64,000 bases of DNA from Carcharhinus longimanus (GCA_030264375.1 JASCQW010000001.1:147568229-147632228), one strand, 5' to 3'. Shown: positions 5,467 through 59,914, numbered from the stretch's first letter. Made by a program: numbers and translations. Notes: generated from the sequence alone by a model not told the origin.

Positions 5467-5656
5467 GAAAATATTTAGTGAAGAAGTCTCGCAGAACAGA
5501 TGTTGAAGACTTGACACCAAATCCAAGAAAACTACTACAAATTGGAAATGAACTTAGAAAACTAAACAAAGTGATTAGTGATCTGACACCTGTAAGTGAA
5601 TTGCCATTAACTGCCAGACCAAGATCCAGAAAAGAAAAGAACAAATTAGCATCCAG
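5467..5656 (+). CDS. CREBRF: CREB3 regulatory factor, internal coding exon (basic region of bZIP), 190 nt, phase 1 to phase 2
   Basis: aaatag|GA...TCCAG|gtaatg. Translates (G)[62 protein letters not shown](R), recognised as near-identical to vertebrate CREBRF. Confidence 0.95.
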
Positions 5657-8600
5657 GTAATGAGGAGAATTCAGTGATTGTCCTGTATAAATGAAACCAA
5701 TTCTTTTTAATATTTGTTATTATCAGAGATGTTTCAATCTTTAAAAATGGATATCTATCTGCATCCCCTCCAAAAATTAATTTCTATCCATCCTCTATAA
5801 GGGTGGGCAGAGCTCTAATAACCTATTCCATATCTACCCAATACTGGTTTTTGTACAAAAAAAATGGTGAAATGCTGCGATTTAAATACAGCACACCATA
5901 TTCTACTCACATGCAAATTTAACCCACCTTTCTCTTTGAAAGTTGGATATTTGAAAAAGGATTTGTTTTGGACATGTTAATAAAAACAGTTTTTCTAACA
6001 CAATTGAAATATGAAATTCACTTTTTTTTGTATTATCTTCATTGATTACTCCACATACGTTACACATAGGTGGCCTATCCAACTGGGAAAATAAGAGGGA
6101 CATTTGTCCCTTTAGCTTTTAATGTAATTGTGATGTTTACAAAATACAGGGGCACCTCCAGGCATCCATCTTCAGTTATTTTCCTCCCACCATTGACACC
6201 CGTTGCATTATGTTTGTTGCATCGCTAAGGAGTCTTCTTAATCAACAGTTTGTTTTTACTGCTGATAACCCAGATTTCTTACCTATACTAAATTTTCTTT
6301 CAAAAGTAAAATATCTTGTTTAGCTGAATTTAAAATTCTACATCAGCTACAGAAAGATCTTCTCCATCACTAAGCAGCACCCAGTACTGTCTTGACCACA
6401 CAATGTGTGAACTCTTACATTTCTATAGTAGGGTAAACCAAAGAGTTTACAGCATCGTCATTCATTCAAAATACACTTGGGTATCAAGGAAGTTCCGTCA
6501 TTCAATTTGACTACATCAGATATCTTCGCATATAACATATCTTTGAGAGGAAACAAATGGCACATAAGAGGATTTCTTTTCAGACATGGAAGTTTCTCTG
6601 AAGAATGCTACTCCTAGATCATTTTCCCATTACTACTCAAACTGAATTTCCTCACTGTGCCAGTTCCAGACCAGGATTGTAGGATGTATTAATATATAAT
6701 ATACTTGTACTATCCATGAGGTTCATCTAGTCACTGAAAGAGGCTGTACAGTTTTAAGTCACAGTGGAGAAAACACAATGTATTGTAAGAGCTGACAGTT
6801 CCCTTAAGGCAGTGCATCTGATATCCCATGTCACCACAGAAAGCTGGATATGGGAGACATTATCTTTACTATTAGTTTGGAATTTATTTTACCTGTGTGT
6901 TGGTCTAATGTAATGCTGAAGGAGTTGTCTTATGCTGATGTGCACTCAAGAATATTCATGGACATTCCAAATTTGGCACTGTTAAGCAACTGAAAATTTT
7001 CTGTAAACAAAACAGGAATAATTCAATACATCTCTGCACAGAAGGTAAGTTATTAAAGCCACTCTCTGGCTTTTGGTCCAAAGGCAAACCTGTATAGGCA
7101 ATTGAACAAAAATAAATATTTTGAAGGCTTCAGTTTTCAGTGAGCTGTAAAATATGTCACTCAAACAGAGAGTCCACAACCTTAACAAGAAGAATGAAGC
7201 CACAGTCTCTTTCATTGCTTCTCGCATCCAATGATGCTAACACTTTGGCTCTGTGTCACATCTCCTGACTTGATCCAGTCTGCCCTGGGGCTGGCTCGCT
7301 AGTAACAGTTTCTGAAAACCAAGGGGTTTGTTGTGCTCTTTCAAAGAGCAATAATGATGATGTTAAATTGGATGCCAAAGTGGAAAGCATATGACGCAAC
7401 TCACGCTCTCAGCAATTGACAAAATGCTTTAAAGCATTTAGGGCTAAAACCAAACCTGCATAGGCTATTAAGTTACAGTAAATTCTTTTACTTTTATCAC
7501 TGATTTTCCACAAGGACCAAAACCTTTTTGTGATGTCTTAAGCCAGCTTCAAAAAATATTTGCGTTATTACACTCGCCATCATGCAAAAAGTATGCTGAC
7601 ATGCAACCTCTGCGATGCATTCTTCCACAAGGCATCATGGATTGCTACAGAAACTACTTTTACTTTCAAATATTCAGCTTCTGTTGGATTTGTAAGGTTC
7701 AAGATAATCTACACCTTCAGTCTTTGCCAGATGTTTATCAGCATTCATCCAAGACAAAATCTGGAATTGAATTGAGACATTCCTTTAGAGGATGAAGACT
7801 TTCCTACTTTGGAATCTTTTTTTGCCAATAACATGGCCCTGTATTGTTTTTCTTTTTCTCAGATAGAGAAATTACGATCAGTGTTCCTTCTGTGCTGCTT
7901 TTTCCTGATTTGTAAAATAACGCTGATGGCATCAGACTGTTCTCGATCTCTAGCACTCTGGCTTGTCTTCTACTTGGACCTTTTTCTTATTCAATAGCAA
8001 AGTAAATTTTGTGTTATGGAGCGGAGAATCATCTGAAATGTATCCCTAATCAGTTGACTATTTATGGATAATCTGATGTCTTTGGGATTAAACTCACACA
8101 TCCTTTGTAGACCATTATGATTGTCCATAACCCTGTTAAAGCTTTATAATTGGAGATTTTTTTTTTAAACCGGTGATTGCTGAGCATCTGAAATAAAACA
8201 GAAGTAATTTTGTAATGGGGGAGAGGGCATCTTTGAAGCCTCACCATCTTCTCTCTTGGAGCACAATCTAACTTTAATTCTTGTTACTGCATTTGGATAG
8301 AATGTTGGACAGACTGAGCAGTTTATCAAGAGTCAAATGGATTAACACCTAGCAGTTATACAACCATTTTACTTTACAATGTACGTAACTAGGCCGACCT
8401 TGAGAGCTCTCCGAAGAAAGCAACTTAACTAAGTGCCTTGTTTTGTACGTGATGAAGATTGAAGTCACAAGCCGCCAACTTATTACAGCTGCATAGCATC
8501 AAACATGATGTTGATAAATGCGCTGTTACTACACGATGCAGCGTAAAAGCATAAATAACTTAACTCAAGCTTGGAGTTTTAAAAGAAATCACTATTACAG

Positions 8601-10084
8601 TTAAATTCAGGTTTGATCTTTCATAATGTCCTATAGATGACAGTCAAACTTGGCCAAGAAAGCCTCCAAGTTTGTTTCTTTCTTCGCCATCTCATCAACG
8701 CCTCCACACCCTCCTGCACCTCACCCCCATCCTGCGCAAAATGTTGCTGAAGAGCCATAAGAATGCCGCTGTACTATGACATTTCAGAGCCATCGTTGGC
8801 TCACCATTTTGTCTTTCAAATAATTGTATATCAGCCTAAGCTGCGATGACCATCATATAAATCCACTTTAGGTTTTCTTTGCCGATAATAAATGGGCTAA
8901 AACTTATTTTTGATGACTTCTTCAAGAAACTTAAATTGTCAACGACACAATTTTGCTGTAATATACTTGCAGTCTGTCTAGGCTATTAATTATTTACCTC
9001 TAATCTTTAGATTTGGACCCTTCTAGTGATAGCCTGGATGTTCATTTATGTCCTAGAATTGCTACATGAAGGACTTCAGCTGGTGGAAATTTCAACTTAA
9101 GCTATCTCTACCTGCCTTTCCATAGTGGAAGGAAACTCTTCAGAAAGTCATTCCTTGAATTTTCTCCCCACATTAAGATCCCAACTAATTGCTTAGTCCA
9201 AGCATGGGATCTTCATGCTGTATAACCTGATGCAACCCCACAACCCCAACTCAGCCCCTTTTTGAGCCTATGGCTGCTGTAGATTTAAAGCTGCTGTCAA
9301 AGGACTTTGTTCCTAACTCTGTTCTCTGCCAGGAGTGTTGGTGAACTTCACGCAGTAGTAGCGGAGGCACAGCCCTGTAATTTTTTTTTTATTTTTTTTT
9401 CCCCCCAGTTGAATAGGCTACCTACCCTTGGGATGTGGAGTGTACCTTTTCAGAAAATGATGACTACATTATTCTAAAGGTGAGTAATGATCTTTATACC
9501 AAGGAGATTCCATTTTAATGATGTAGTATTTCTTAAACTATGTTTCATAATGTAAGTTCGCATGCGATATTTGACTTTCATTGATAAAAGTTCTTACCAC
9601 TAACATGTTTAAATAAGCTGCAGTTGGTTGGCTGAACAGTCAGTCTGAGGCTGATTTTATTGAAACCCGTATGGAGATAAAAGTTCAACCAATATTTCAA
9701 AATTATGACTTTATAATCCAAGAATTTTTTATTTGTAGTCACATTTGGTTCTGTGCTGTCTGCATCTGTAAAGTATGCATCTAAAACTAAAGTGTAGGTC
9801 AAATTTTATTTTCCTTCTAATTTTCTCCTCATTTCCTGTCTCTGAAGACATTGATTTACTCCCTGGAGTACTGGGGTTTGTGGGTGTTTTCTCTGTGATC
9901 CTAAGCAGAGAGTTTGAATAAGCTATCCAATAAGTGAAGGAAGGAATATCTCAGCTGTGACTAATCCTGTTCTCATCCATGATTACATATAGGCGTATTT
10001 TAAAACTATCTATTTGCTAGATAGGAAATAGCAGTAGGAACCATGGTGACTTCCCTCTCCCTATTTAGAAAACAAATGCAAAAT

Positions 10085-14399: not shown

Positions 14400-15080
14400 C
14401 TTTCACAATTTTAAAAACAAGCTGAATCTCTCCTCTTTTTTTGGTCCAAAATTGCTAATCTCACTTCTATTGAAATTCATCTACCATAGTTGCCCTGACT
14501 CATTTAGCCTAGATATGGAAATGCCGACGTTGGACTGGATTAAGCACAGTAAAAAGTCGCAAAACACCAGGTTAAAGTCCAGTAGGTTTATTTGGTAGCA
14601 CAAGTACGAATAAACCTGTTGGACTTTAACCTGATGTTGTGAGACTTCTTACTGTCATTTAGTTTATCCATGTTACTTGTAATGTAATGCTTCCACCTAC
14701 ATAACTTACTTTGGCACCAATCTTAGTGACCTGGGAAGTCCTATCTATTGCATTATCTAAGTCAACACCAAATTTGGGGAATAGTTGATGGCTCAACAAT
14801 TATTCCTTCTAATTCGAATACGTCGCTGTTATTCCTATTGTCTGTCTATTATCACCTAACCAATTTCCTAACCAGGTCAATAATTTGCCTTCATGCCCAT
14901 GTGCTTTCATTTTGGTTTATGGTCTTTTATGTGGAACTTTATTGACTGCCTTCTGTAGGCCTATACATAACCCATCTCCATAGATATTCTTTTGTTTCCT
15001 ACTTTGGTTACTATTAATAAAAATGCTTTTTGTTGGAAATCCACTACCCATCAGATCCATGTTGGCTCTAGAGGCCCACT
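14400..15080 (-). mobile_element. Decayed CR1 LINE fragment
   Basis: Minus-strand LQKAVNKVPHKR (DFQKAFDKVPH-like) motif. Confidence 0.6.
14512..14655. mobile_element. Short palindromic Penelope-derived element (family A) inserted in a CR1 fragment
   Basis: Arms acagtaaaaagtcgcaaaacaccaggttaaagtcc and ggactttaacctgatgttgtgagacttcttactgt. Flanked by repeated catttag. Confidence 0.7.
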
Positions 15081-15730: not shown

Positions 15731-15804
15731 GGCTTGCCGCTTAAAGAAAAAGGCTCAATATGAAGCTAATAAAGTAAAACTATGGGGTCTCAATACTGAA
15801 TATG
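15731..15804 (+). CDS. CREBRF: CREBRF next coding exon, 74 nt, phase 2 to phase 1
   Basis: tctgcag|G GCT TGC...GAA TAT G|gtaaga. Translates (R)[24 protein letters not shown](D) and continues the previous exon in frame. Too short for the ORF track. Confidence 0.95.
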
Positions 15805-15849
15805 GTAAGATAATAGTTTTGTATGTTTTGTTTAAGTTATTTGTACTTG

Positions 15850-16074
15850 GAATAAAACAGAAAATAAATGCTGAAAATACAAACTAGCAGCATCTGTAGT
15901 GAGAGAGAGAAACACAACTAACGGTTCAGGCCTCTGATGTTTGCCAGAATGAGAGCATTTAGAGATCAGTTCTTAAATCAGGTTTAAGTCAGGGGCTGAA
16001 GGAAGAACAGAATGGGATAGCCTATGATGGGCAAGGATCACCAACCTAAAATGTTAACACTGTTTCTCTCTTCT
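15850..16074. mobile_element. Penelope-derived family B element, right end truncated
   Basis: aaaacagaaaataaatgctgaaaatac...gcagcatctgtagtgagagagagaaacac. The return arm (aaatgttaacactgtttctctc) is cut at 16074. Confidence 0.55.
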
Positions 16075-16515
16075 GATGTGGAGATGCCGGCGTCGGACTG
16101 GGGTAAACACAGTAAGAAGTCTGACGACATCAGGTTTAAGTCCAACCGATTTATTTGATAGTCAACTCGCAAGCTTTCGAGGTTTCCCTCTACATCAGGT
16201 GAATGAAGAGTTCTGGCCTCAGACAGAGCATATAAAGCACAGTTTACAGATTACTGATTAGAATGCAAATCTTTACACCTAACCTGCTGTTCAAGTCTTA
16301 AAGTGGCATTGTTAGCCACTTTAAGACTTGAACAGCAGATTAGGTGTAAAGATTCGCATTCTAATCACTAATCTGTAAACTGTCTGTGCTTTATATGCTC
16401 TGTCTGAAGCCAGAACTCTCCAGTCACCTGACGAAGGGACTAACCCCGAAAGCTAGTGAGTGTACTATCAAATAAATCGGTTGGACTGAAACCTGGTGTT
16501 GTCAGACTTTTTACT
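16075..16515. mobile_element. Palindromic Penelope-derived element (family A), ~200-bp inverted arms
   Basis: Arms ~16111-16307 and ~16315-16515 around a short loop (aagtggc attgtta gccactt). Unpaired 5' extension gatgtggagatgccggcgtcggactgggg. Carries a hammerhead motif. Confidence 0.75.
16421..16462 (+). ncRNA. Minimal type I hammerhead ribozyme motif in a Penelope-derived element
   Basis: cagtcac-CTGACGA-agggactaacccc-GAAA-gc-TA-gtgagtg: catalytic boxes, short stem II, palindromic AGCT stem III, and stem I closing (cagtcac/gtgagtg). Confidence 0.65.
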
Positions 16516-16703
16516 AGTACACAAAAGACAGTATTCTTAAGTGTTAACCTTGTGGTGAAATAAGCTGTTGACATTCACTGTCTCAGATTGGTTAAATTAG
16601 CAGAAGGTTGTTGGCACCTTTTGCAGCATAACTCAGCAGGAACCTTCTGCCTACTGGCTAATTTTTCAAAGTCTCCCCACCCACATTATAGTTGTGTATT
16701 TAA

Positions 16704-16913
<210 letters not shown>

Positions 16914-17047
16914 TAACTTTAATTTCAAATATATTGTTAAATTGTGGATCGTTGATTTTAAGTCATTTTTCTTAGTTCATTTTTACTGTAAGAATTGAAC
17001 ACATCGTTGGAAAAAATTATCTAAACACGTACATTTAAAATTGTATC

Positions 17048-17703
17048 TGCATGCTTTTCTTTTTGCACATGATCCAAACTTTACAGGATCTTGTTTGTTG
17101 TGTGACTGACTTGATTTGATTCTACTTTCTGTTACACAGAGTACTGGCTGGGAGGTAGGTGTTACTTCAGTTGATGTTGGAGCACTAATGTTTAATGTAA
17201 GACTTGTGTGAATGCTTTGCCTGTGTGTGCTGGCTGTGGGTGTTCTGTTGTTGTCTGGCTATGGAGCCATTTCTTTTGACCTCAGAATTGTAGTTTTTTA
17301 TTCCCTGTTGAGGCCATGTGAAATGCTTTCGGATGAACAGATCTCACAGACGGTGCATGTTACGTAGACAATTTCTCACTAATGAAGAGTCCTGTGAATG
17401 AGTCACTTCCATTATCACTAGCTTTTAATCGTGTTTGTTTCACAGACATGTATTTGCCTCTCACTGCTGCTGGCAGGAAGGTTTTCTTTATTTTACTAGT
17501 TTTGATTTATACATTTTTTTTCCTCAGTGCAATTATTTGTGTCCATTGTTCACGAGTCACACATTGCAACATTGCATGGTGAAGTACCTCCCTAGCCTGT
17601 TTACTTGTCCAGTTGTGGTCTGTGTTAGCTTCTTCTCCTTTCTCAATCATCCATCATGTGGGGGGCTGAATATGCTATCCCTTTTATTATCAGATACTGC
17701 ATG
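17048..17703 (+). promoter_or_regulatory. Cluster of TGCATG (RBFOX-type) splicing motifs around the DOCK7 microexon
   Basis: TGCATG at 17048, 17354, 17573 and 17698 in repeat-free intronic sequence. Confidence 0.55.
17140..17154 (+). CDS. DOCK7: DOCK7 15-nt alternative microexon (STGWE)
   Basis: ctgac...gttacacag|AGTACTGGCTGGGAG|gtaggt. STGWE is the peptide between KIVHQ and RMFG in known DOCK7 isoforms. Confidence 0.9.
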
Positions 17704-19508: not shown

Positions 19509-19962
19509 GGCATGGTGGTACACGTTCCAAATGTTGCTTTTTCCACTATTATCTGCCATGCCTGTTATTTGCTTGGATATTCTGTGTTGCAAATACGTAG
19601 GCAGTATTTCAATATGATTGAACCACATACAGCAGCAAAACACACCAAAAAATACTTGCCGCAACAATGCATATGTAGCATTGCTGCCTCAATTGAACCA
19701 GGGGCCCGGGTTCAATTCCTGGCGTGGGTGACTGTGTGGAGTTTGCATGTTCTCCCCGTGGCTGTGTGAGTTTCCTCCAGGTGCTCGAGTTTCCTCCCAC
19801 AGTCTAAAGATGTGTGAGTTAGGTTGACTTAGGCTATGCTAAATTGCCTCTTAGTGTCAGGAGATTAGTAGGGTAAATAAGTGGGGTTATGGGAATAAGG
19901 TGGGACTGTGATTGGTGCAGATTCGATAGGCCAAATGGCCTTTTCTGCACTGTAGAGATTCA
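19509..19962 (+). mobile_element. HE1 V-SINE with a ~155-bp foreign insert in its tRNA head
   Basis: ggcatggtggtaca [insert 19523-19675] tagcattgctgcctca...V core...tail. Confidence 0.8.
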
Positions 19963-20191: not shown

Positions 20192-20333
20192 GTTCCTTGT
20201 GTTGCTTTTTCCTCTATTATCTGCTTGGATATTCTGTGTTGCAAACACATAGGCAGTATTTCAATATGAATGAACTACATACAGCAGCAAAACACACCAA
20301 AAAATACATGCCACAACAATGCATATGTAGCAT
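20192..20333 (+). repeat. Donor copy of a local direct duplication (other copy 19524-19681)
   Basis: gcttggatattctgtgttgcaaa...cacaccaaaaaatac...caacaatgcatatgtagcat occurs twice. Confidence 0.9.
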
Positions 20334-23243: not shown

Positions 23244-23455
23244 TTGAGCAGATCTTGAAAGATGGCTTACCTGAAGCTTCCTTGCTTCAAAACAACATGA
23301 CATTCCAGTAAAATGCAAAGGGACAGTTAAGAATCTGCTTTATAATAACATCCAGTAGCCATTATCTGTGGCTGCAGGCAGACTTGAAATATTATTTTAA
23401 ACTAAATACACTCACTACAAAATAATTGGACTGTCTTTGTAACATTAGTTCACCA
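23244..23455 (+). repeat. ~210-bp diverged direct repeat, copy 1 (copy 2 at 25138-25349)
   Basis: Shared aatctgcttta...tccagtagccattatctgtg...ctttgtaacattagttcacca. Confidence 0.85.
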
Positions 23456-23986: not shown

Positions 23987-24720
<734 letters not shown>

Positions 24721-25137: not shown

Positions 25138-25349
25138 TTGAAGCAAATCTTGAAAAATGACATCCTGTAGCTTATTTGCCTCGAAACAACATGGCGTTCC
25201 AGTAGAGTACAAAGAGACAGTTCAAAATCTGCTTTAGAATAATATCCAGTAGCCATTATCTGTGACTGTAGGCAGACTCAAAATATATTTTTAAATTAAA
25301 GATACTCACTATAGAATAGTTAGACTGACTTTGTAACATTAGTTCACCA
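25138..25349 (+). repeat. ~210-bp diverged direct repeat, copy 2
   Basis: See 23244-23455. Confidence 0.85.
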
Positions 25350-25534: not shown

Positions 25535-25642
<108 letters not shown>

Positions 25643-26456: not shown

Positions 26457-26753
<297 letters not shown>

Positions 26754-27407: not shown

Positions 27408-27719
<312 letters not shown>

Positions 27720-28030
27720 TAACACAGTAAGAAGTCTCACAACACCAGGTTAAAGTACAACAGGTTTATTTGGTAGCAAAAGCTACTAGCTTTCAGAGCA
27801 CTGCTCCTTCGTTAGGTAAGTGGGAGTTCAGTTCATAAACAGGGCATATAAAGACACAAACTCAATTTACAAAATAATGGTTGGAATGCAAGTCTTTATA
27901 GGTAATCAGGCTGTAAAGGTACAGACAATGTGAGTGGAGAGAGGGTGAAGCACAGGTTAAAGAGATGTGTATTGTCTACACCTAGGACAGTTAGTGAGAT
28001 TTTGCAAGCCCAGGCATGAGGGGATACAAC
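27720..28030 (-). mobile_element. Penelope-derived element family A, single arm
   Basis: Aligns by eye with the left arm of the 61.6-62.3 kb element. Degenerate hammerhead at ~27785-27822 (reverse complement ctaacgaaggagcagtgctctgaaagcta). Confidence 0.7.
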
Positions 28031-28489
28031 AGTTGCACCCACCCTAACAGGAATCCTGAAAATCAGAGCAATGCTACATTGTTCTGAGGAGAGCAGAGAG
28101 GTCCTAGTAGGGCTAAGAAAAAGGTATCTTTTATCTTTCTTTCTTCTGTAGGATTGCAGACATTCCAAGAGTGTCATGAATTACAGATGAATCTCCAGGA
28201 CTGCTGGCAAACAGAAAGTCACTGGGGCTTTTTCATTTTCCTCGAATGACCGTCAAGAGTTACATAAATTTGTAGGATTAGAAAATTGCTGTTTGAGGCA
28301 GAGTGTTTGGAGGAAGGGGGTCTTGTGTTGAAACTTCCAGGAATATCTCCAAGCCTATCTTTAGTTTGTAATGAAGCCAGCACGCTTCCGTTTAAGGTTA
28401 TCAATAACTTCTCACTGTTGATGGTTTGGATGCCTTTCTTCAATTGACAGCATGGATTCGCATCAATTCTTGCCCTCCTTGCAACTTTA

Positions 28490-28866
28490 TTTTATCCATT
28501 CATGGGACATGGGCGTCATTGGCTAGCTAGCATTTATTGCCCATCCCTAGTTCCTTTGAACTGCATGTCTTGCTCAGCCATTTCTGAGGCCAGTTGAGAG
28601 TCAACCACATCGCTGTGGCTCTGGAGTCACATGTAGGCCAAACCAGATAAGGACAGCAGATTTTCTTCACTTAAAATGTGAATCAGATGGGTTTTTCCGA
28701 CAATGGTTTCACAACAATGGTTATCAACAGACTCTTAATTCCAGATTTTTTTAAATTGAATTCAAATTCCACCATCAGCTGTAGCAGGATTCGAACCCAG
28801 GTCCCTATAACGCCAATTGAGTTTCTGAATTAATAGTCTGATGATAATACCACTAGGCCATCGCCT
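28490..28866 (-). mobile_element. tRNA-derived SINE family C (same as 1255-1608)
   Basis: catttattgcccatccctag...ctggagtcacatgtaggcc...ttgaattcaaattc...ggattcgaacccagg...taataccactaggcc. Confidence 0.8.
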
Positions 28867-34735: not shown

Positions 34736-34967
34736 TTTAAAATAATGCCCACCTCAGCCTGTCATCAGTGGAAGTAGTTTTTTTTTAACTAGGAAATAGT
34801 TTTTTTTTACTTATAAATGTTTCTTAGCAATTTAAACACCTTAAGCAGATCAGCCCTTAATCTTTTATATTGAAGGGAATGCAAACCTAGTGTCAGCAAC
34901 CTGATCTTATAATTAACCCTTTAGATCCAGTATCATTCTGGTGAATCTTCACCACAATGGAAATATA

Positions 34968-36142: not shown

Positions 36143-36555
36143 ACAATCCCTAGAATGCAGAAGGAGGCCATTTGACCCATCGAGCCTGCACCGACAACAA
36201 TTCAATCCTATCTATAACCATATGCATTTACCCTGCTAATCCCCCTGACACTAAGGGGCAATTTAGAACAATGAAAATTACAGCACAGGAACAGGCCCTT
36301 CGGCCCTCCGAGCCTGCCCCAACTATGCTACCCAACAGAACTAAAATCCCCTACCCTTCAAAGAACAAAGAAAATTATTTAGCATGGCCAATTAACCTAA
36401 CCTGCTTATTGTTGGAGTGTGGGAAGAAACCAGACCACCCAAAGGAAAACTACGCAGACATGGGGAGAAGGTGCAGTGACCCGAAGCCGGAATTGAACCC
36501 AGGCCCCTGGAGCAGTGAGGTAGCACTGCTAACCACTGTGCCACAATGCTGCCCC
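36143..36555 (-). mobile_element. HE1 V-SINE with a nested CR1 tail fragment (~36266-36370)
   Basis: The SINE is interrupted after gggcaatttag by cagcacaggaacaggcccttcggccc and resumes at atttagcatggcc. Confidence 0.75.
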
Positions 36556-37734
36556 CATGTGGCTAGTGGCAAACGTATTGGACAACACGGATCTTGTGTG
36601 TCTGTTAAATGTGGATAAACACTCATGTCACATTTTTAGATGAAACAATCTATAACTTGTGAAATCAAGATAGCATTGGTTTGAAGTAAAAGCCTGAAGA
36701 GCTGGTTTGATAATCGATCAAGCTTTTTAAATATATTGCCAGTCTGGAGTTCACACTTCTGTTTAAACTATATGTAACATGGGGCTTGCAAACAGAAGTG
36801 AGCAGCACAGCTAACTTTAATTGACACTGAGGCTAAGTTTGAAGTCCCTACTATCACCCTGACTGACATCAGCAGATGGCACAGATCAGAGATTCAACTT
36901 GGGGCCTCTGTGATTCAATTGAATCATTGGGGTATTGTAGTAATTTCTGTCTTTGCAATGCTATCGGGTGTGAACTGGATGTATTGTCAGATTTGCAGCT
37001 TAATTAAGCAGCAAACAAATAATTAAAAACTACACAGTATGGAAATTAAACACAACTTCACCATTCTAAGTCTAGCTGCTTTATCATGTAACATCACACT
37101 ACGAAATAATTATGTGCCACTGGGGATATGTTTTCGAAGTTCATTACTGTATTTTCCATCACTGTGATCTTAATAGGGTCACAGATTTCTGCAGGAATGG
37201 TATGCCTCTTTAGGTGGTCGCTAATTGTTCTTTTAATTTAAATTACGCTATGGCTGCATGGGACCCATCAAGATCCATGTTCTACATTGAGGCTTCGAAA
37301 GGTCGAATGTCAGCTGACCTTTTCCCTCAGTGCCCCCAACTTATGAAAGATAAATAAGATTGGATCTCACCAAGTAAGACCACAGCAAAACTTATTTGGT
37401 GCATTTGCGGCTATCAGGTAACTTCAAAATCTGGCTTGACTTGTGATTTTTCTCAACTGTTGAGAATGGGCACTTGGGTGACATTGCCAGCTGGGGTCCA
37501 GTGGCACCACCTTCGTCGCTGAGGCAGAAGCCTGTGGATTGAGGTCTTGCTCCAGAGACTTGAGAACAGCATCTCGCCCAGTAGTTCCCAACATTTTGTG
37601 TGTCCTGCCATACCTCAAAAAAAAACTGAGGCGCAACTCCAATTTTCTTCAACTGAACTACCCTCTAACAAAAGCCTTCCATCTCGAAAACCTCCTAAAA
37701 GCACGCCATGCCGCCATCTAATATAGTTTCCATT

Positions 37735-38290
37735 AGTTTAAGCAGTTTACAGTGAAAACCCTGTCACCAGTGTCAAATACAGTACATTTTATGAAAAATG
37801 TATACGATTTAAAAGCATTTTCCATCAAAGTTTTCAGTTGTTCACACAAAATAGTAAAGAAGCTCAATGTCAAAGGGTGTGATTTTACATAATTCACCAT
37901 TTTTGCTGTTTGGTTTAATAATACAATAAAATCAGGTGGTAGAGGCAATAATGGTTTCACAGTGCAGGATATATTGGCTGACTTGCATATCAGGCTTCTG
38001 TTCTTTTACCTTACTCATCAATCCTTTAACCTTACCCAGTATGGAAGATGATCCATCCAGTTAAGATTGCTTTCCTCCAGATAAGCAGTTGTGATACAAA
38101 AGATGTCTTCTCCAGTCATGTGACTGGACAGTTCTTTGCAAAAGAAGAAATTTTCTTTGGTGGAATCCCTGTCAACATACCTGCCATTGAAGTACCTGTT
38201 ATCAACTGATGTTTTGTCAATATATTATTTGATTGTATTATCAGAAAGAAGAACGGGGTCAATTTCTCTGCCACATCCAGAATTTAAGAA
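37735..38290 (-). mobile_element. Decayed hAT transposase fragment (Charlie/Buster; ZBED5/SCAND3-like)
   Basis: Minus strand reads RYVDRDSTKENFFFCKELSSHMTGEDIF...LNW, KGLMSKVKE...ILHCE (CxxH region) and KMVNYVKSHPL..FFTILCEQ. Confidence 0.75.
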
Positions 38291-38322
38291 TTCTTGGTCT
38301 TATGATCAGTGTTGATATTGAT

Positions 38323-38628
38323 AGGGCGGCATGGTGGCACAGTGTTGCCTCACAGCGCCAGGATCCGGGTTCAGTTCCAGGTTTGGGTCACTGTCTGTGT
38401 GGAGTTTGTACATTTTCCCCGTGTCTATGTGGGTTTCCTCCAGATGCTCCGGTTTCCTCCCACAGTCCGAGGAGGTGCGGGTTAGGTGGATTGGCCATGC
38501 TAAATTGCCCCTTAGTGTGAGGGGGATTAGCTAGGGCAAATGCATGGGGATAGGACCTGGGTGGGATTGTGGTCGGCGCAGACTTGATGGGCCGAATGGC
38601 CTCCTTCTGCACTGTAGGATTCTATGAT
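38323..38628 (+). mobile_element. HE1 V-SINE (tail A), well preserved
   Basis: gggcggcatggtggcacagt...ggccgaatggcctccttctgcactgtaggattctatg. Confidence 0.9.
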
Positions 38629-38694
38629 ATCTTGGCTGAAATCCCTGAAGAGAGTAGCCATTTAAACAAAGAATAACAAAAAACAAAATAAAGT

Positions 38695-39060
38695 AAGCAT
38701 AGGAATTGACTCTTCAGCCCTCCAAGTGTGCTGATCATGATGCCCTAATTAAACTGAAAAAATACCTTCTGTCCTTATTTAGTTTTTATCCCTCTATTCC
38801 CTCCCTATTCATGTACCCATCCAGATACTTTTTAAATGTTGCTAATGTGCCTGCTTCCACTACCTCCTCTGCAGCGCATTCCAGGCACCCACCACTCTGT
38901 GCATGAAATACTACCCCTGTACATCTCGCTTAAACTTTCCCCCTCTCACCTTGAACCTGTGGCCCCTTGGGAAAAAGCCTCTGACTATCCATCCTGTCTA
39001 TACTTCTCATAATTTTGTAGACCTCTATCAGGTCTCCCCTCAGCCTCTGTCTTTCCAGCA
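38695..39060 (-). mobile_element. CR1 LINE 3' fragment
   Basis: gcattccaggcacccaccactct, aattttgtagacctctatcaggtctcccctcagcct. Confidence 0.8.
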
Positions 39061-40432
39061 AAGACAAGATGATGGTATGGTACGTGACGATGGTGAAAGT
39101 TTGATATTAGAAGGAGTTGAAGGATGACTTACCCTGGTGGAGTGGATGAGATCTCAAACTTTAACTTGGCGTAAGTTTACATAAAAATACAAAAATAGAT
39201 ATAATCTGACCATCATGAACTATTTGATGAATTACTCGTTCTTCAAATACAGCGTAATTCAGGCACTTTGTCTAATAATTGCCTGTTACTGTCGATACAA
39301 TATCAGTGGTTAGTGTACTGAAATAGTAGGTATTCAAATCACAAAAAACTTGTTTTGGATAAGATGTTAGTACAAAATGGCGGCTTGACCTTAATCTTTT
39401 GTAGAATGGACTCTCTAAAAATGATCAAGTTAAGCAGACAAACTAAATCCTATTAAAACAAATACAAAACCCAGGTTTGCTTACAACATAATGGGTATAA
39501 ATCTTTCTAACAAGGCAAGTACATTCTCTTTTGAAAATTATGCTTGCTTGGGCCTCTTCTGGCCCCAGTTCTACTTCCTGCTAGGTTCACCCTGGTGGGA
39601 AAGCGGGCAAAGCATCTCGTGCTCACCCGCTTGCTAAAATAAAGATCAGGTAATTGGGCATCACCAGTGCCAGGTTTGCATGTATAAAGAATGACTACGC
39701 TACTTTCTAGTGGGTGTTTTCACCATTCTGAAGAGCAGATTAAAATAAATGGCTGTAAGAAGAGATTGAATCAGCAGTTACATCCCTTGGGTCATTTTAA
39801 TTGCCTCCCCGGCTGCCAGACCAAATTATTTCACAATTAATATCACATCTTCCTTTTAGGACTCTCCAGCCCATTTGGCGTCAACCTTAAATGTCTTTTG
39901 ACTTCCTGTCATTTACGTTTGGTTGTTTTTTTCCTTCCTGTATCTGCTTCTTTCCTTGTCTTATCCATCCCTTTTTCAAATTCCTTTCATGTTATTGTGT
40001 TTCATAGTGCCAAACGTTTCCTATTTCATATGACTTGGAGTCAGTAGTGCACCCCTATAGTTTCTTTATAATAATCTCACGAAGGCCAGTGTTCCAGTTC
40101 CAACACTCTTTATTTACCACATGCAGAAGGTACTGCTTCTGCAGCCACAGCGTACGTGTCAAGCTCTTCCACAGCTGGCCTGAGTGGGGTCAGCTGGTTT
40201 TAAACCCTCTCCCAGTGCTCCTTCCCTTTTGGGTGACCATCCACATGCTTGATAGGGGAGCTCATATTTACAAGACCCACAGAGAGGTCCACTGACAACC
40301 TTCAAGGCAATTCGCAGTAATTAACAAGACTTTATTTCTACTTTACAGTCTGGGGGGATTTTCATAGTGTATGTATGTGGAAGGGTGAGATTGATAGCAA
40401 GATCCAGAAATGTTAAATGTACATTTCTGAAT

Positions 40433-40847
40433 TGAGTGTCAGCTGTGGCTCAGTTGTACCACTCAAGTCTGAGGCACAAAGTCCTAGGTTCAATCCCAAC
40501 AGAGGATTTGAATACAAAGGTGTATGCTGATGCCTTAGAGCAGTTTTGAGGAAAAGTGGCATTGCTGGAAGTGCTGTCTTTCAGATCAGATGAGGTCCCA
40601 TTTGATTGCTTGGGTGGATATTAAAGATCCCATTATTCTGAAGTGGAGTAAGTGAATTATCCCCAGTGTTCTTGCCAATATTTCTTCCTCAATCAACATC
40701 GCAAAAAGCAGATCATCTGCTCATTATTGTACTGTTATTTATGGGAGTGGTGACAACACAATGCTGACTGTACTTCGAAAAATACTTAATTGATTCCAAA
40801 GTGCTTTGGTGGTTGTGAATATTGTATATAAATTCCACTCTCTCTTT
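40433..40847 (+). mobile_element. Near full-length DeuSINE (SacSINE1-like)
   Basis: tRNA-like head gtggctcagttg...ggttcaatccc, Deu domain ggtggatattaaagatccca...gccaatatttcttcctcaatcaacatc, and tail gtgctttgg...tatataaat. Confidence 0.75.
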
Positions 40848-41271
40848 CTGATCAGTGCTCCTGGTGTGCATAGCTTGCCATGAGTAGTAGTTTTAGCCAG
40901 AGGCAACCTGTAAAAACTTTGATCCAAAACAATTACATTATCACTTTATGTAAACCATACATCATTTATGCCCCAAGTTATCTCAGTAACCCCTCTTGGC
41001 AGCTTGGCTGGGACTCACTACAGACACCCATTTCAGCATTTTAAACTCTGGTCAATACATTTATATTAACTGGAAAGGTGGGTAGCATATTTAAATTCTT
41101 CACCTCCAAAGCATGATAGACCCTGAAATTTTAATGGGAGTTCTCCTGATCTCCTCCTGAGATCATTACGTAAATGGCTATTTTCGATCATTCGTGCTGG
41201 AACTTGGGAAGACCCGAAAAACCCCTGCGAAATTCCAAGGTCACTGAGTTTTGGATTCAGCTGCCTGGGAA

Positions 41272-41519
41272 ATGTTTATTTTACTTATTACTCTTACAAG
41301 TAGGCTTACATTAACACTGCAGTTATGTTACACTCTGGCGCCTGTTCAAGGACACAGAGGAATGCACCTAACCAGCACGTCTTTCAGACTGTGAGAGGAA
41401 ACCCATGCAGACACGGGGAGAATGTGTAGACTCCGCACAGACAGTGACCCAAACTGGGAATCAAACCGCACCCCGGCACTGTAAGCCAGCAGTGCTAGTG
41501 CTAACCACTGTGCCACCCC
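41272..41519 (-). mobile_element. V-SINE, tail type B
   Basis: caagtaggcttacattaacactgca...ctggcgcctgttc plus head. Confidence 0.8.
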
Positions 41520-42346
41520 CTATTGAAGTGTGTAGTATAACTGAGTTCAAGAAACAATTAAGTGTATTTTCGAACAGCAAAAGAATTGAGGAATATGTTT
41601 GGAAGCTGGTAGGTGGAGTTAATCTATAACGGGACAAATATATTGGTTAGCCTAGTTGGTCACCCTGGTTGTTTACTGTTCCGAAAAGGCATTTTTTCTG
41701 TTTTGCACAGTATTATGTAGTGCCTTCTCCAGATTTTTAATGTTAATTCCAATGCAAATTCACAGTCCCAACATTAACCTATGTTTATTAAAATGTATCA
41801 GTATCACTAAGAAGTTCAACAAGCAAGCCTTTTTTTCATTGATATAAGAGTTTCCAAACTCCAGTAAGTTTGATATCCCCCCTGCCCCAGCCTAGTTATT
41901 CTTGCAATAAGGACAGACAAAATCTTGCAATGATTGTTTTGATCATCTGGGCGACACCTTAACTGGAATGAATGCTACAAAACTGAGAATTACTTTCTGC
42001 GCTTGCCTCTGCTTATCTTTCAGGCCTTCCAACAGTAGGTGGTACTGCTGCTGCTCCAAGCTGTGTTTCCCAGTGCTGTTTGCCTGAGTGATGCAGCAGG
42101 TACATTTTTCCTTTAGATTTATTAACCTTCCATTTTCTTTCAAGGTTTAATTTAATTTAATGCATCAATTGTCTTTTCTAATATTTTTGCTTGTTGTTTC
42201 ATTTGGCTCATTCTTTTACTCATGCTTTCAGCCAACTTCATGGACTTACCTATCCTCCCATTTGTAGAGCCTCTGGATTCAGGCTGTCGGACCTTCTCCC
42301 AACCCACAGTGAGACTTAGCGCCAAATTTTGGGCATTTATCTATCC

Positions 42347-42548
42347 TCATAGAATCCCTACAGTGCAGAAGGAGGCCATTTGGCCCATCAAGTCTGTACT
42401 GGTTCTCTGACAGAGTATCTTACCAAGGCCCTCTTTTCCCCCTGTACCCATAACCCCACATATTTACCTCGCTAATCCCCCTAACCTATACATCCATCTA
42501 ACCTAGACATCTTAAGACACTAAAGGGGCAATTTAGCATGGCCAATCC
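42347..42548 (-). mobile_element. HE1 V-SINE 3' part
   Basis: catagaatccctacagtgcagaaggaggcc...gcaatttagcatggccaatcc. Confidence 0.8.
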
Positions 42549-42829
42549 TGCTATCCTGCTCCTAACCGCCCAGGTATATTGATCAATGGACTCATGACTC
42601 ATGCCATTCTTTCCTGATTTGTAATCTACCTAACATCCTTACCTATTCTCCAGGTCCATATCTCCATTCTAATTGTTCCGTTGACAATTTCCTGGCTCTG
42701 GGAAACATTTTTTAGAATGTTTATATCATTATAAAAGGAATGTAACATGGTGTTCTTTCTAAAATGCTTTTTGAATTTTAAAAAGTCAAATTGCTGAATT
42801 CTCACTTCTGGAAAAACAGCAAAGCTTAT

Positions 42830-43330
42830 AATGAGATGGAGGGTAGGACTTTCTAAAATGCACTGTTGAGTGTGATTGGGATGGGTTATAAAGGAATGGG
42901 GGGCTGATGGTGAGGGACAGTTTGGGGGTGCTGTAGACTGAAGGGTTTGCTGGGATGTATGTCGGAACTGATCAGTTAAAAGAATAAAGGTTTGGTTGAG
43001 ATGGTGCCTTAAGAATGGAACTTGCTCATGGGGAGATGATGACAAGAAAGGAATAAAGAGTGGCGGATAAAGTTGGTGAGAGGAAAACAATAAGCACAGG
43101 GTGTGGAGAGGAAGGAGAAGTGCAGAGAATGGGGTTGAGTAAGAGGGAATAGATAATGGGATAGCAGTTGATGCAAAATAAGTGACAGAATGTAATATTA
43201 GGTGACAAAACAGCCAGGAGTTTATGATGATACAGGGTGTGAGAAGCTGGTGCAAAAAAAGCAAGGATGTTGGGGGAAGGGGCTGGAAGAAACAAGAGAG
43301 TGAAAGGGATAGAGGGATTTTGCCATGAAA
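42830..43330 (+). repeat. Purine (GA)-rich low-complexity tract
   Basis: G/A strand bias, which accounts for the spurious 244-aa minus-strand ORF. Confidence 0.55.
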
Positions 43331-44034
43331 AATACTGAAACTAGATCCTGGCTCATCCATTTATCTTTTTTATTATTTGAATAATATTCCGTAGTCCTGT
43401 TTGGTGAAAATCATTTGTAGTGTCCCTGAATCTTTAATTATGCAGTCTTGATCCCTGCCCAAGAGCGTGAAGTTGGAAAGTTACCCCTTTCAAAAACTTC
43501 CTGGAAGGAATCCAGTGGTGGTTCAGTAACTGAAATGGTCGATGAATAACTGAGACAAAGAGACCAGGCTTGGCTTCTGCCCAGCAATTCCTGGTGTGTG
43601 CTGAATTAACTGATCTTAGCTGGACCTGCATTGGAGACACAACCACTGAACCCAGCATCCTCTAGCTGGCGAAGGGCAACAATAAAAGAATGAGGCAGGG
43701 TTCTTGATGGAATGTGCATGGGGGTGGGTGCCAATTCAAAGCTGCTAGTAACTGAATACCGTGTGTGCCACAGTTCTGTTGATTTTCTCTGAATTACAGA
43801 AGGGCTGTTGGCAAAGTTGGGAGTGGAGTGGACTGGGGCATCAGGAGCAATATTAAAACACAGCAAAGGGGAATGTAATGTACATTGGAAGCATCGGGAA
43901 TGAATGGGATGGTGGGGTGGGATTGGGGCACTTAGGCTTGTGGGTGTGTGACCCTCATTCTGACAACACCAAGTGGGCGATTTGAGGTGGGATTAATGAC
44001 TGTTCTTTGTTTCATTACAGAGTGTCATGACATC

Positions 44035-44963
44035 TGAGGGAGGAGAGAGGTTGCCAGCTGCCAATCAAGGGAGCAGTTAGATATGCGTGTCAAGGGAGGG
44101 GGGGAATAAAACGAGAGAGCTGCTGTCAGTCAAAGGAACATTTGGACATAGGTGTGTGTGAAGGGGTGTTGGATATAAGTGTCATGGAACAGTGAAATAA
44201 AAAGGGAGAGTTGTTAGTCAAGGGAACAGCTGGATATGGGGAAGGGGAAATGGCTAACGCTGCCAGTTACAGTAGCAGTTGCAGTGTGTGAAGGGGGGTT
44301 GATATAGGTATTAGGGGAAGGGGGAAGTCTTTCTCCTTCTGAGTACACGTACCAACCAACTTAAGAATAGCTTCTTTCCTGCTGCCATCAGACTTTTGAA
44401 TGGACCTACCTCACATCTCTCTCTGCACCCTAGCTACGAATGTAACACCACATTCTGCACTCTCTTCTTTCCTTCTCTATGTATGGTATGCTTTGTATGT
44501 GTAGTGTGCAAGAAACAATACTTTTCATTGAATACTAATACATGTGACAATAATAAATCCAATCAAAAACAAAATGACAGCAGCAGTTGGATATAGGTGC
44601 GTGTGGCGGGAGATCGGATATGGGTGTCAGGAGAGAGGGGGTGGATAAAAAGGGAGTGCAGCTATCAGTCAAGGGAACAGTTGGATATGAGTGTCAGGGG
44701 AAGTAGCTGAAACTATCAGTTACAGCAGCAGCTGGATATGGGTGTGTGTGTGTGTGGTGGGGGATTGGATATGGATGTTAGGGGAAATAAGAAGGTGGAT
44801 AAAAAGGGAGAGCAGCTGCCAGTGAAGGGAACAGTTGGATATGGGTGTTGGGTAGGAGGGAAGTAGTTGAAGCTGTCAGTCAAAGCAGCATTTGGACATG
44901 GGTCTGTGTGGGGGGGCTGGGTTGGATATGGGTGTGTGTGGGGGGGGGGGGGGGGGCGGTTGG
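44035..44963 (+). repeat. G-rich degenerate tandem repeat (cagttggatatgggtgt / cagtcaagggaa / ggataaaaagggagag modules)
   Basis: More than 10 recurrences of (t/c)ggata(t)(g/a)ggtgt. Ends in a poly-G run at the gap. Confidence 0.75.
44325..44572 (+). mobile_element. Rex1/Babar-type LINE 3' end inserted in the tandem repeat
   Basis: Encodes RTNQLKNSFFPAAIRLLNG (Rex1-like ORF end), followed by the shared tail. Confidence 0.7.
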
Positions 44964-45349
44964 NNNNNNNNNNNNNNNNNNNNNNNNNNNNNNNNNNNNN
45001 NNNNNNNNNNNNNNNNNNNNNNNNNNNNNNNNNNNNNNNNNNNNNNNNNNNNNNNNNNNNNNNNNNNNNNNNNNNNNNNNNNNNNNNNNNNNNNNNNNNN
45101 NNNNNNNNNNNNNNNNNNNNNNNNNNNNNNNNNNNNNNNNNNNNNNNNNNNNNNNNNNNNNNNNNNNNNNNNNNNNNNNNNNNNNNNNNNNNNNNNNNNN
45201 NNNNNNNNNNNNNNNNNNNNNNNNNNNNNNNNNNNNNNNNNNNNNNNNNNNNNNNNNNNNNNNNNNNNNNNNNNNNNNNNNNNNNNNNNNNNNNNNNNNN
45301 NNNNNNNNNNNNNNNNNNNNNNNNNNNNNNNNNNNNNNNNNNNNNNNNN
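44964..45349. other. Assembly gap (386 N), probable location of SETD7 exon 1
   Basis: N run between a poly-G tract and CpG-rich DNA. Confidence 0.95.
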
Positions 45350-45480
45350 ACAGTGCGGTGCAGAGATATCCGGCCCCCAAATCACGCCTTTTAAAAGCGA
45401 CTCTTCTATTTTGTGTACTCGAACAAAGCATCGCAAACGCGCGCTGGCGAGAGAAAACCGTTCGCAACGACCCATAACCA
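45350..45480. promoter_or_regulatory. CpG-rich edge of a probable SETD7 promoter / intron-1 CpG island (exon 1 likely in the adjacent gap)
   Basis: Many CpGs (gcggtg, ccggcc, cgcgcgctggcga, ccgttcgcaacga) in otherwise CpG-poor DNA, ~1 kb upstream of SETD7 exon 2, abutting an N gap. Confidence 0.5.
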
Positions 45481-46394
45481 GCAGGGTTTTACTTTTCTAA
45501 ATAAAATAAATGTTCTGAAAAAAAAAGTTTAACTTGGGGGCAGATCTTCCAGGATTTTAATTTTTTTTTTGCAAATCGACTAAAGGTGCCAACGTTTAAA
45601 TTGGCAAAATCAATGGGTGCCAACAGTGAGAACCAAAAAAAAAATTTTTCGAAAAGAAACGTCCTAATTTCCTGGAATTCAATGGATCTTTAAAGAAAAA
45701 GTAATTGGTTTAAAAATGAATGTGTTGGGCTACTTTAACAGTTATGTAATCTGGATTATTGTGATGCAGGCATTGCGAGTCAGCCGTGCAGAGTGAAAGC
45801 ACCAGTGTTCTGGTGGGGGCGAAACTACAGGGTGGGAATTTTGCTGCACACACAATTCACCTTCAGGGGAAAGAGAGAGAGCCTCTTATTCCCTCTACAA
45901 TGTAACCTTTGCCTCTGTTCCCCAGCGGGATGGGGGTAATTGCCCCTATTGTTTCCAACTGGACCGTACGAATCTTTGCCTCCATCAGTATTTCAGGCCA
46001 CTTGATAAGAACAAAGTTTCCCCATTTAATTTTAAATGTTACCAGCAACCGAGAAAGCAGAGGGGGTTAACAAAAAAAAAACAAATCTCTCTTCCCTTTT
46101 CTCCCTCTTGTCATTGCGTGTTGATTTCAGTCGTGACAAATAACCCAGAGAGAAAAGTCACCACCTCCAAACTGGATCTCACGTGGATTTAAAAAAAAAA
46201 CCATTCTTGAGCCTTCCTCCCGAACAAATGAACAGGATCTTGGTGGTGTTTATAGTCAGTAGCAGATACTTAGTGTTTTAATGTTGCAGTAACGTGCAAT
46301 CTTTTTTGGGTGGGGGGGGAGGGGGTGGTTAAAATTATTTTACTTTTTGTGTGAATGTCCGAGGTTCAGTAAGTTTAAAATGTTCCTGTTGTAG

Positions 46395-46524
46395 GTCCCT
46401 TGGATGAAGATAACCAGCCACATGGGTTCTGTAAAGTTACCTATGCCTCTAGTGACAGATTTGAAGGGCATTTTGTACATGGTGAGAAGAATGGTCGCGG
46501 GAAGTTCTATTTTTTTGATGGCAG
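46395..46524 (+). CDS. SETD7: SETD7 (SET7/9 lysine methyltransferase) exon 2, MORN-repeat region, 130 nt
   Basis: ttgtag|GT CCC TTG GAT...GAT GGC AG|gtaaaa. Translates (G)PLDEDNQPHGFCKVTYASSDRFEGHFVHGEKNGRGKFYFFDG(S). Confidence 0.94.
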
Positions 46525-52925: not shown

Positions 52926-53335
52926 TCATAGAATAGAACCCTGCAGTGCAGAAGGAGGCCATTTGGTCCAGTGAGTCTGCACCAACCACAATCCCACCCA
53001 GGCCCTATCCTCATAACCCCAAGCATTTACCCGAGCAAGTCCCCTGACACCAGGGGGTAATTTAGCATGGCCAATCCATCTAACCCGCGCACATCTTTGG
53101 ACTGTGGAAGGAAACCAGAGCACCGGAAGAAACCCACGCAGGAACGTGTTTGCTACCAAATAAACTGTTGGACTTTAACCTGGTGTTGTGAGACTTCTTA
53201 CTGTTACCCCAGTCCAACGCCGGCATCTCCACATCAAAACTCCACACAGACAGTGACCCAAGCCGAGATCAAACCTGGGTCCCTGGCGCTGTGATGCAGC
53301 AGTGCTGGAGTAACCATTATGCCACCATGCCACCC
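52926..53335 (-). mobile_element. HE1 V-SINE (tail A) interrupted by a Penelope-derived fragment
   Basis: SINE sequence is continuous either side of 53145-53236. Confidence 0.85.
53145..53236 (+). mobile_element. Penelope-derived family A terminal fragment nested in an HE1 SINE
   Basis: gctaccaaataaactgttggactttaacctggtgttgtgagac...ccggcatctccacatc. The SINE resumes afterwards. Confidence 0.7.
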
Positions 53336-57043: not shown

Positions 57044-57245
57044 CACACTGGAAGGGAACTGCATTGACGATGCTTTACAAGGACAAGCTGTTTACACCTA
57101 TGAGGATGGGAGTACCCTCCATGGTACCTACATTGATGGAGAATTGAATGGCATAGCTGAGGAATATGATTCAGAGGGACAGTTGACCTTCAGGGGTCAA
57201 TACAGGGATAATGTTCGGTGGGGTGTTTGCTGGATGTACTTTTCG
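57044..57245 (+). CDS. SETD7: SETD7 exon 3, 202 nt
   Basis: atttag|C ACA CTG...TTT TCG|gtaagt. Translates (S)TLEGNCIDDALQGQAVYTYEDGSTLHGTYIDGELNGIAEEYDSEGQLTFRGQYRDNVRWGVCWMYFS, in frame with exon 2. Confidence 0.94.
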
Positions 57246-58613: not shown

Positions 58614-58881
58614 CTTAAAAGTTTATTTATTAGTGTCGCAAGTAAGCTTACATTAGCACTGCAATGAAATTACTGTGAAAATCCCCTAGTCACCACACTC
58701 TGGCGCCTGTTCGGGTACACTGAGGGAGAATTTAGCACAGGGAATGCACCTAACCAGCATGTCTGTCGGACTGTGAGAGAAAAACAAAGCATGGGGAGAA
58801 CGTGCAGACTCTGCACAGACGGTGGCCCAAATTGGGAATCANNNNNNNNNNGTGTTAACCACTGTGCTACCATGCTGCCCA
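58614..58881 (-). mobile_element. V-SINE, tail type B (contains a 10-N gap)
   Basis: aagtttatttattagtgtcgcaagtaagcttacattagcactgcaatgaaattactgtgaaaatcccctagtc. Confidence 0.8.
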
Positions 58882-59724
58882 CCCTCCTGCCCGTTCTCTC
58901 ACTGCACCTTCCATCACTCTGGGATCGCATCAACTTTCGAGCATTAAAATGGTGCCACAATGGTAAAATGTTTGGTAAGCACTGTTTATAAGTTTAGAAA
59001 TACTGACAGCAAAACAATCTACACTTATACGTATGTATAATGTACCCTAACTTCTAGTCAGATATTTAGCAGAAAAAAATGTGCATTGCATTCAAAAAAT
59101 GATGGTAAGTCAGGAGGAAGAAAAACTCGTTCTCATGGGATTACCACAACCTTTTGGCTCACACGAGAGTGCTACCAACAGAGCAACAGCGGACTGGAAT
59201 TTTTTGGAGAAAACTGGCAAAGAAGTATATATTGCTTTAGTGTTTTCATGGCCTTAACTTGGCCTTTTGGCTAAGGTCATGCCCAAAATGGGGTGCAATG
59301 CTTCATTTTATCAGCTTGTCTTGTGGAGACCTTGAATTGGATTCAGTTGGATTTTGAATTTGGTTTTTGGAGCAAGCAAGGAATGGATTTGGGTTTGCCC
59401 AGTCCATTCTGAGCACTGACTTTGTAACTTTAAGGATGGAGTAAAACATTTTTTTAAAAAAAGTCTGCTTTCTACCCTGGTCAGACGTGTCTGCGAACTG
59501 TGGCCATAACTTTACCAGAATTGCAGTATAAACTCTCTTTACACATGGTAATAGTTGTTTTTTGTCTGCACATCTCATGAAATTACAGTGGCAATGTGTG
59601 AACAGTTCTGAAGAGGTTCTCAATCTGTTTCCCCAGATTCTTTTTCTAAGAAGAAAATACATATGTCATTACACTGTGAACATTGTGTTTTATGAACCGT
59701 GTGACATGTTATCTTGTGTGACAG

Positions 59725-59914
59725 GATGGAGGCTGCGTTGTAGGAGAGGTGAATGAAGACGGGGAGATGACTGGTGATAAAATAGCTTATGTTTATCCTG
59801 ATGGCAAGATAGCCCTGCTTGGAAAATTTGTTGATGGGGAAATAATCGAAGGACACCTGGCAACGCTTAAAGGTGTAACAGAGGGAAAGCCCCAGTTCGA
59901 GCTGTCTCCAGATG
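59725..59914 (+). CDS. SETD7: SETD7 exon 4, 190 nt
   Basis: tgacag|GAT GGA GGC...CCA GAT G|gtgaga. Translates [63 protein letters not shown]. Confidence 0.94.

Follow-up and report, generated by a model that had tools for sequence, protein, structure and literature searches.

A probable assembly chimera of CREBRF, DOCK7 and SETD7 loci, joined at a palindromic Penelope-like repeat, in a draft genome of Carcharhinus longimanus

Repeat-mediated rearrangements and mosaic duplication blocks are well established in primates, and they offer a first model for fragments of unrelated genes that lie side by side. Other sources provide two more, since false duplications resembling real ones are described as a common assembly error (PMC8081667), and an intron-containing NRPS (non-ribosomal peptide synthetase) gene of Adineta vaga is reported as framed by Penelope repeats, with an 8-bp duplication (PMC3846280). 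In this regard, Craig et al. pointed out that inverted Penelope structures often trouble short-read assemblies (PMC8557442). Here we analyse a stretch of 64,000 nucleotides of Carcharhinus longimanus (GCA_030264375.1, JASCQW010000001.1:147568229-147632228; hereafter the window, with positions counted from its first letter), where exons of CREBRF, then of DOCK7 and then of SETD7 follow one another on the + strand. The window is, in our judgement, most likely a chimera of a gapped draft assembly, joined through a repeat.

The CREBRF block comprises two coding exons, one of 190 nt at 5467-5656 (+), bounded by AG/GT and identical at 62/62 amino acids to eight of the nine chondrichthyan CREBRF proteins (61/62 in the ninth), and the next one of 74 nt at 15731-15804 (+), the last in the window, which is identical at 24/24 amino acids in all nine. 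The identity of the gene rests on these 100% matches to sharks and rays, as Pfam gave no match and the PDB no significant one; sharks and rays also supply the closest named proteins for the window exons as a whole. For the neighbouring exons, both strands were searched by tblastn, the queries being the nine chondrichthyan CREBRF proteins, five named ones of DOCK7 and five of SETD7. The flanking segments, together with SETD7 exon 1, also served as short queries with PAM30, and no match in the whole window had an E value better than 0.05. The nine CREBRF proteins found the two known exons and no others, and neither approach detected a downstream, C-terminal CREBRF exon in the window, while 77-110 residues follow the last window exon in all nine. 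The exon preceding 5467 is likewise absent from bases 1-5466 and may lie before the window. A catshark CREBRF model (P0123) also lacks this preceding exon, probably through an annotation or assembly gap in the catshark.

DOCK7 is represented by six exons on the + strand. Four of them match the partial model of Scyliorhinus torazame (P0001) at 200 of 201 residues: the first at 16758-16889 (44/44, lobe A of the DHR-2 domain, Pfam PF06920), and those at 25535-25624 (29/30), 26508-26744 (79/79, DHR-2 lobe B, PDB 6AJ4) and 27501-27644 (48/48, the last in the window). The exon at 23987-24121 is identical at 44/45 residues to four named non-shark DOCK7 proteins, and a microexon of 15 nt lies at 17140-17154, with AG/GT borders and an open frame. 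In the PDB search the best match was 6AJ4 (E 4.5e-48), with scores of 163 bits for DOCK7, 132 for DOCK8 and 129 for DOCK6, and the DHR-2 lobes were also recognised by Pfam. With the five DOCK7 queries, tblastn recovered the five larger exons and nothing else of the gene, and neither upstream nor terminal DOCK7 exons were detected in the window by tblastn or short queries. Altogether, these searches bear out the initial annotation, which had failed by eye to find the following exons of CREBRF and the preceding and following ones of DOCK7, and had described canonical splice sites in genes lying all on one strand: AG/GT borders occur throughout and the exons join in frame within each gene.

Several observations concern the DOCK7 block itself. 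Of 99 named DOCK7 proteins, 3 have the five residues of the microexon at the matching position and 73 show the skipped form; the microexon also reads through when the alternative acceptor at 23996 is used. The + strand of the window has 31 TGCATG motifs, four of which lie at 17048-17698 (region 16890-17700), and we take this motif near the microexon to be of the RBFOX type. Human, chicken and zebrafish possess a neural DOCK7 microexon, which may correspond to the one at 17140-17154 (PMC12871342, PMC12626424). Direct local duplications are present in the introns (19562-19681 and 20214-20333, 93%; 23270-23455 and 25164-25349, 84%), and the exon at 23987-24121 is missing from the catshark model P0001, probably because of an annotation or assembly gap there.

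The last CREBRF exon and the first DOCK7 exon are separated by 953 bp (15805-16757), which lie within a gapless stretch of 41,513 bp (3451-44963), confirming what had been noted about their gapless proximity. It had also been argued that the upstream exons of DOCK7 are too many for this space, and indeed 585 residues precede the window block (105 follow it) even in the partial catshark model. Because the front of DOCK7 cannot fit in 953 bp, a breakpoint within 15805-16757 (junction 1) is certain. A close-up view of this interval reveals two repeats. The older one, family A, is a two-armed repeat (15854-16070) of which the left arm and, apparently, the first inner part of the right arm are present, with a cut at 16071; the left arm (15854-15906) matches a profile built from other copies (nhmmer, E 0.013), and the inner right arm ending at 16070 reaches a score of 25.5, slightly above the null 95th percentile of 24.0. 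The second one, family B, is a palindromic Penelope-like repeat of 440 bp (16076-16514) with a tail of ~30 bp at its left end, whose arms are 89% identical and form a hairpin with a z score of -29. After this palindrome the outer right arm of family A was not found, the score within 90 nt being 18, compared with 43.5 and 64 in intact copies. A candidate for it 200 nt downstream was discarded, as its score of 35 equals the null 95th percentile and it sits on the DOCK7 polypyrimidine tract. From these scores, the apparent cutting of a family-A host repeat by family B is weakly shown.

The window holds six family-B insertions, with copies of 90-700 bp and a tail in five of the six, at one end each. 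Flanking duplications of 8, 10 and 12 bp occur at three insertions, a 7-bp one that is offset at another, and none at the remaining two. The three perfect duplications belong to the other two-armed copies (3/3; null for at least 8 bp, 0.9%), the 12-bp match overlapping the element end. Two of the other palindromic insertions (14512-14655, 53145-53235 and 61630-62326) carry perfect duplications of 8-10 bp, and the flanks of a further copy at 63043-63272 match as well. Around the repeat of junction 1, the two flanks share neither a word longer than 4 nt nor, with up to one mismatch allowed, an 8-mer. Such unmatched flanks would come from different insertion sites, and therefore junction 1 most likely lies in or at the repeat 16076-16514. 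The copy at 63043-63272 is the closest one to the junction repeat (89-93% identical over ~75 nt), and it is interrupted centrally by a gap of 100 N, from which it follows that the assembler could not cross family B at that place. The term Penelope-like denotes a structural resemblance only, the copies being too short to hold an open reading frame with reverse transcriptase and GIY-YIG. Rfam at its gathering threshold gave no match in the whole window, the hammerhead ribozyme included, although minimal hammerheads can be missed in this way.

How intact are the exons that have been separated from the rest of their genes? Over ~795 nonsynonymous sites, the eight CREBRF and DOCK7 exons show zero private amino acid changes, in a lenient test where a residue seen in any named orthologue passes and DOCK7 has one shark reference. 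Any real duplicate is therefore less than ~0.4% diverged from its source at neutral sites (rule of three on zero changes). The neutral decay expected of older duplicated fragments was not seen, which excludes only duplicates diverged by more than ~0.4%, and the two blocks are, as judged from their exons, either working loci or extremely young copies. The earlier argument that intact exons by themselves favour an artefact does not stand, as a very young duplication, below ~0.4%, passes the same test.

In human, CREBRF, DOCK7 and SETD7 sit on three different chromosomes. A similar separation is observed in the species where at least two of the genes were listed (n = 11), as all 13 within-species pairs fall on longest contigs of differing size, where the longest contig listed per protein served as the locus label and the sizes may stem from different assemblies. 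For instance, Mobula hypostoma has CREBRF on a contig of 189,679,916 bp and SETD7 on one of 205,008,019 bp, whereas in S. torazame DOCK7 lies on 190,805 bp and CREBRF on 273,534 bp. Moreover, none of the 283 named protein matches (331 in all, with 48 unnamed ones excluded) spans exons of two of the three genes. A search of 50% clusters with the catshark DOCK7 returned unnamed proteins. The window genes are themselves ordinary orthologues, in an arrangement that is probably not biological. Elasmobranch chromosomes are described as stable and changing by fusions only (PMC11406177). The text supplements of this and another study of shark synteny do not mention the three genes, which their larger tables may list (PMC11406177, PMC10620051), and our literature search, largely confined to papers outside subscription, found no report of this CREBRF/DOCK7/SETD7 arrangement.

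The third gene appears at the right side of the window, with exon 2 of SETD7 at 46395-46524 (+; MORN repeats, 39/42 to stingray and elephant-shark SETD7), exon 3 at 57044-57245 (+; 66/67 to SETD7 of Carcharodon carcharias) and exon 4 at 59725-59914 (+; Pfam SET7_N, E 6e-30; 58/63 to C. carcharias). The PDB, Pfam SET7_N and the shark proteins agree on this identity, and the MORN/SET7_N exons 2-4 are ordered and in frame, with the exons of the SET domain expected past the window end. SETD7 exon 1 was not found in the sequenced bases of the window. The observed/expected CpG ratio is 1.34 at 45401-45700, compared with 0.18-0.29 to the left of a gap of 386 N (44964-45349); this gap probably hides exon 1 and the promoter, and the CpG-rich DNA at 45 kb looks like SETD7's own start, still in place.

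A second breakpoint (junction 2), between DOCK7 and SETD7, must be held by the interval 27645-45349, gap of 386 N included, and it can be bracketed no more narrowly than that. Within it, a family-C repeat (copies of 360-390 bp) at 28481-28870 is a weak candidate, as it lacks the flanking duplication of 9 bp that the other copy, a single control at 1251-1609, possesses. The 386-N gap is another candidate. A single tail-less arm of family B at 27721-28025, 74-79% identical to the junction-1 copy, was set aside, since its 7-bp flanking match (null ~7%) suggests an ordinary insertion. The flanks of short interspersed elements (SINEs) gave no usable duplications and so cannot mark the junction, and strand skews calculated after masking did not separate the blocks, with a loose mask that covered 56% and included some exons. 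Imperfect G-rich repeats occupy 44055-44963 and end in a G run where the 386-N gap begins, a pattern that would be expected in places where short reads drop out.

How might such a sequence have been made? Each block would be the ordinary, working locus of its gene, and the three would come from separate places in the genome. An assembler or gap-closer would have entered the palindrome of family B from a copy in a CREBRF intron, and the path would have left through a related family-B copy into a DOCK7 intron, with a gapless join and unmatched flanks as a result. DOCK7 would then be linked to the SETD7 region by a second mis-join, placed within 27645-45349 either at a further repeat or at the gap of 386 N. 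The sequence itself shows the exons and their integrity, the lack of their neighbours and the absence of a target-site duplication, whereas a breakpoint inside the repeat, software rather than the cell as the maker, and the place of junction 2 are what we infer. A chimera was already the reading preferred in the initial annotation, and our results support it, now including the anatomy of the 953-bp interval. We favour it because the orphan exons look like those of working genes, with no unseen residue, canonical splice sites and an intact microexon; because the orthologues are whole and apart in other genomes; because the repeat of junction 1 lacks a flanking duplication and the interrupted family A does not resume; and because family B defeats the assembly at 63043-63272, in a window with five N gaps in 64 kb. 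The trouble that inverted Penelope structures cause in short-read assemblies (PMC8557442) and the stability of elasmobranch chromosomes (PMC11406177) point in the same direction.

A number of points weigh against a chimera. Junction 1 is gapless and lies within a contig of 41.5 kb, junction 2 has not been located, two independent mis-joins are needed in 64 kb, and all three blocks fall on one strand, which has a 1-in-4 chance. If two repeat copies had truly recombined ectopically, they would leave an identical trace, with the duplication missing and the host cut. A change-point test for a chimeric repeat was not significant (p = 0.08, permutation), with 18/96 differences between the outer and 6/102 between the inner parts of the arms. 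The single-armed family-B copy at 53145 also lacks a duplication; its host SINE, however, extends past it in both directions. Moreover, for a random stretch of 953 bp the chance of overlap with a family-B copy is 7-10%, and the longest exact words shared by the junction-1 arms with other copies measure 16-26 nt, short for a join in a large-k graph. Finally, cartilaginous fishes make up 2 of the 11 species used for synteny, neither of which gives a DOCK7 and SETD7 pair.

The ambiguous trace of recombination leads directly to the idea of a real and very young mosaic, in which copies of CREBRF (at least 12 kb) and DOCK7 (at least 11 kb) were placed upstream of SETD7 by duplication or rearrangement, with family-B palindromes as sites of ectopic recombination or of cruciform breakage and the fragments as non-functional passengers. 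The absence of a gap at junction 1 speaks for it, as does the strong hairpin found there (z -29), and the missing duplication and the cut host repeat fit recombination equally well. Such a mosaic must nevertheless be less than ~0.4% diverged, and a gapped draft would tend to merge copies so alike. For the same reason, missing exons found at the starts of other scaffolds, which had been proposed as a refutation of a real locus, would not serve as one: with a near-identical duplicate, the source loci too would be expected to come out collapsed and broken. The mosaic would also require two or more interchromosomal events in ~30 kb, in a lineage described as chromosomally stable (PMC11406177), and no fused or mixed model appears among the 283 named matches, so that we hold this origin to be unlikely. 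Of equally small probability is the more specific proposal that the Penelope-like palindromes of this shark are fragile or recombinogenic and have, very recently, built a hub of CREBRF/DOCK7 duplication, with segments from other chromosomes, just upstream of SETD7; if true, it would mean repeat-driven mosaic duplication in sharks and a new fusion transcript that can be tested.

Other readings start from single features of the window. The family-B repeats at 16076-16514 and 27721-28025 bracket the DOCK7 exons, as they would if Penelope-mediated mobilisation in trans had copied the DOCK7 block, introns included, into a CREBRF intron. We regard this as highly improbable: the bracketing repeats are 74-79% identical while their cargo is unchanged, the arms adjoining the cargo face each other and are not direct repeats, the outer flanks share no duplication (longest word 5 nt), and past 28025 there is no return to the CREBRF intron, as the remainder of family A stays at null level and the last CREBRF exons are absent. 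Splicing across the blocks could in turn suggest a functional CREBRF-SETD7 fusion that skips the DOCK7 block and would recruit a lysine methyltransferase to bZIP-bound DNA. As noted in the initial annotation, splicing of CREBRF to SETD7 exon 2 is in frame, and it meets no stop over the 261 codons available; a frame match of this kind has, as was also noted, a 1-in-3 chance. The stop after four codons previously described for the CREBRF-DOCK7 splice was confirmed as well, and the five strong DOCK7 acceptors that intervene, those of the larger exons, each lead to a stop within 5-22 codons. In addition, SETD7 seems to retain its own CpG-rich start at 45 kb and the 283 named matches include no such protein, which leaves a fusion gene with a very slight probability.

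The window as a whole is AT-rich and CpG-depleted, with N gaps at 3351-3450, 44964-45349, 58842-58851, 60431-61422 and 63125-63224. The first of these, of 100 N, lies upstream of the first CREBRF exon between two stretches that look by eye like relics of long interspersed elements (LINEs). It could be a further join, because no CREBRF exon is found within 1-5466. A search for a fourth host gene covered 272 stop-to-stop open reading frames (ORFs), namely 212 of at least 38 amino acids in 27645-46390, 48 of at least 35 in 1-5466 and 12 of at least 20 in 15805-16757, after exclusion of those more than half covered by self-repeats. No host gene was found among them, and Pfam returned two fragments of RVT_1 (LINE reverse transcriptase) and two sub-threshold matches, Rap_GAP (E 0.006) and DUF5798 (E 0.012). 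A decayed LINE lies at ~32850-34550 (+), with RVT_1 fragments at 33401-33714. A hydrophobic ORF of 61 codons at 29779-29961 (-) resembles the tail of a membrane protein, with no Pfam match and a high Atlas score, which we take as a lead only and probably a product of chance.

If the window is an artefact, then the assembly can contain gapless interchromosomal joins at palindromic repeats, and findings of gene order or gene fusion need read support; in that case an absent target-site duplication would offer a cheap flag for repeat mis-joins that requires nothing but the sequence. Were the joins real, on the other hand, an in-frame CREBRF-SETD7 transcript would be possible, and the window would represent a mosaic duplication block in a chromosomally stable lineage.

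Among the described systems, the mosaic segmental duplications of primates also combine intron-containing fragments from different chromosomes with a repeat at the join, as seen here, whereas the fragments of the window show no divergence from their source, any extra copy is hypothetical, and they stand directly upstream of a normal-looking SETD7 start. The A. vaga case shares with the window an intron-containing segment between Penelope-like repeats (PMC3846280), and differs from it in that here the repeats are 74-79% identical and not direct, a target-site duplication is missing and the host does not resume. Family B itself agrees with Penelope-like elements in its inverted arrangement and in a tail of 30-40 bp, often at one end, as described for these (PMC8557442), and like these elements it has short target-site duplications (3/6 perfect). 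Compared with vertebrate orthologues, the exon sequences match those of sharks and rays, while CREBRF lacks its end and DOCK7 both of its ends, the two being adjacent. Known mis-joins, for their part, are defined by a lack of read support, whereas the present case is judged from the sequence and has a gapless junction 1. It nevertheless looks as repeat-induced mis-joins do, with unrelated single-copy loci that abut at a dispersed repeat or a gap, cut in their introns and with their exons intact.

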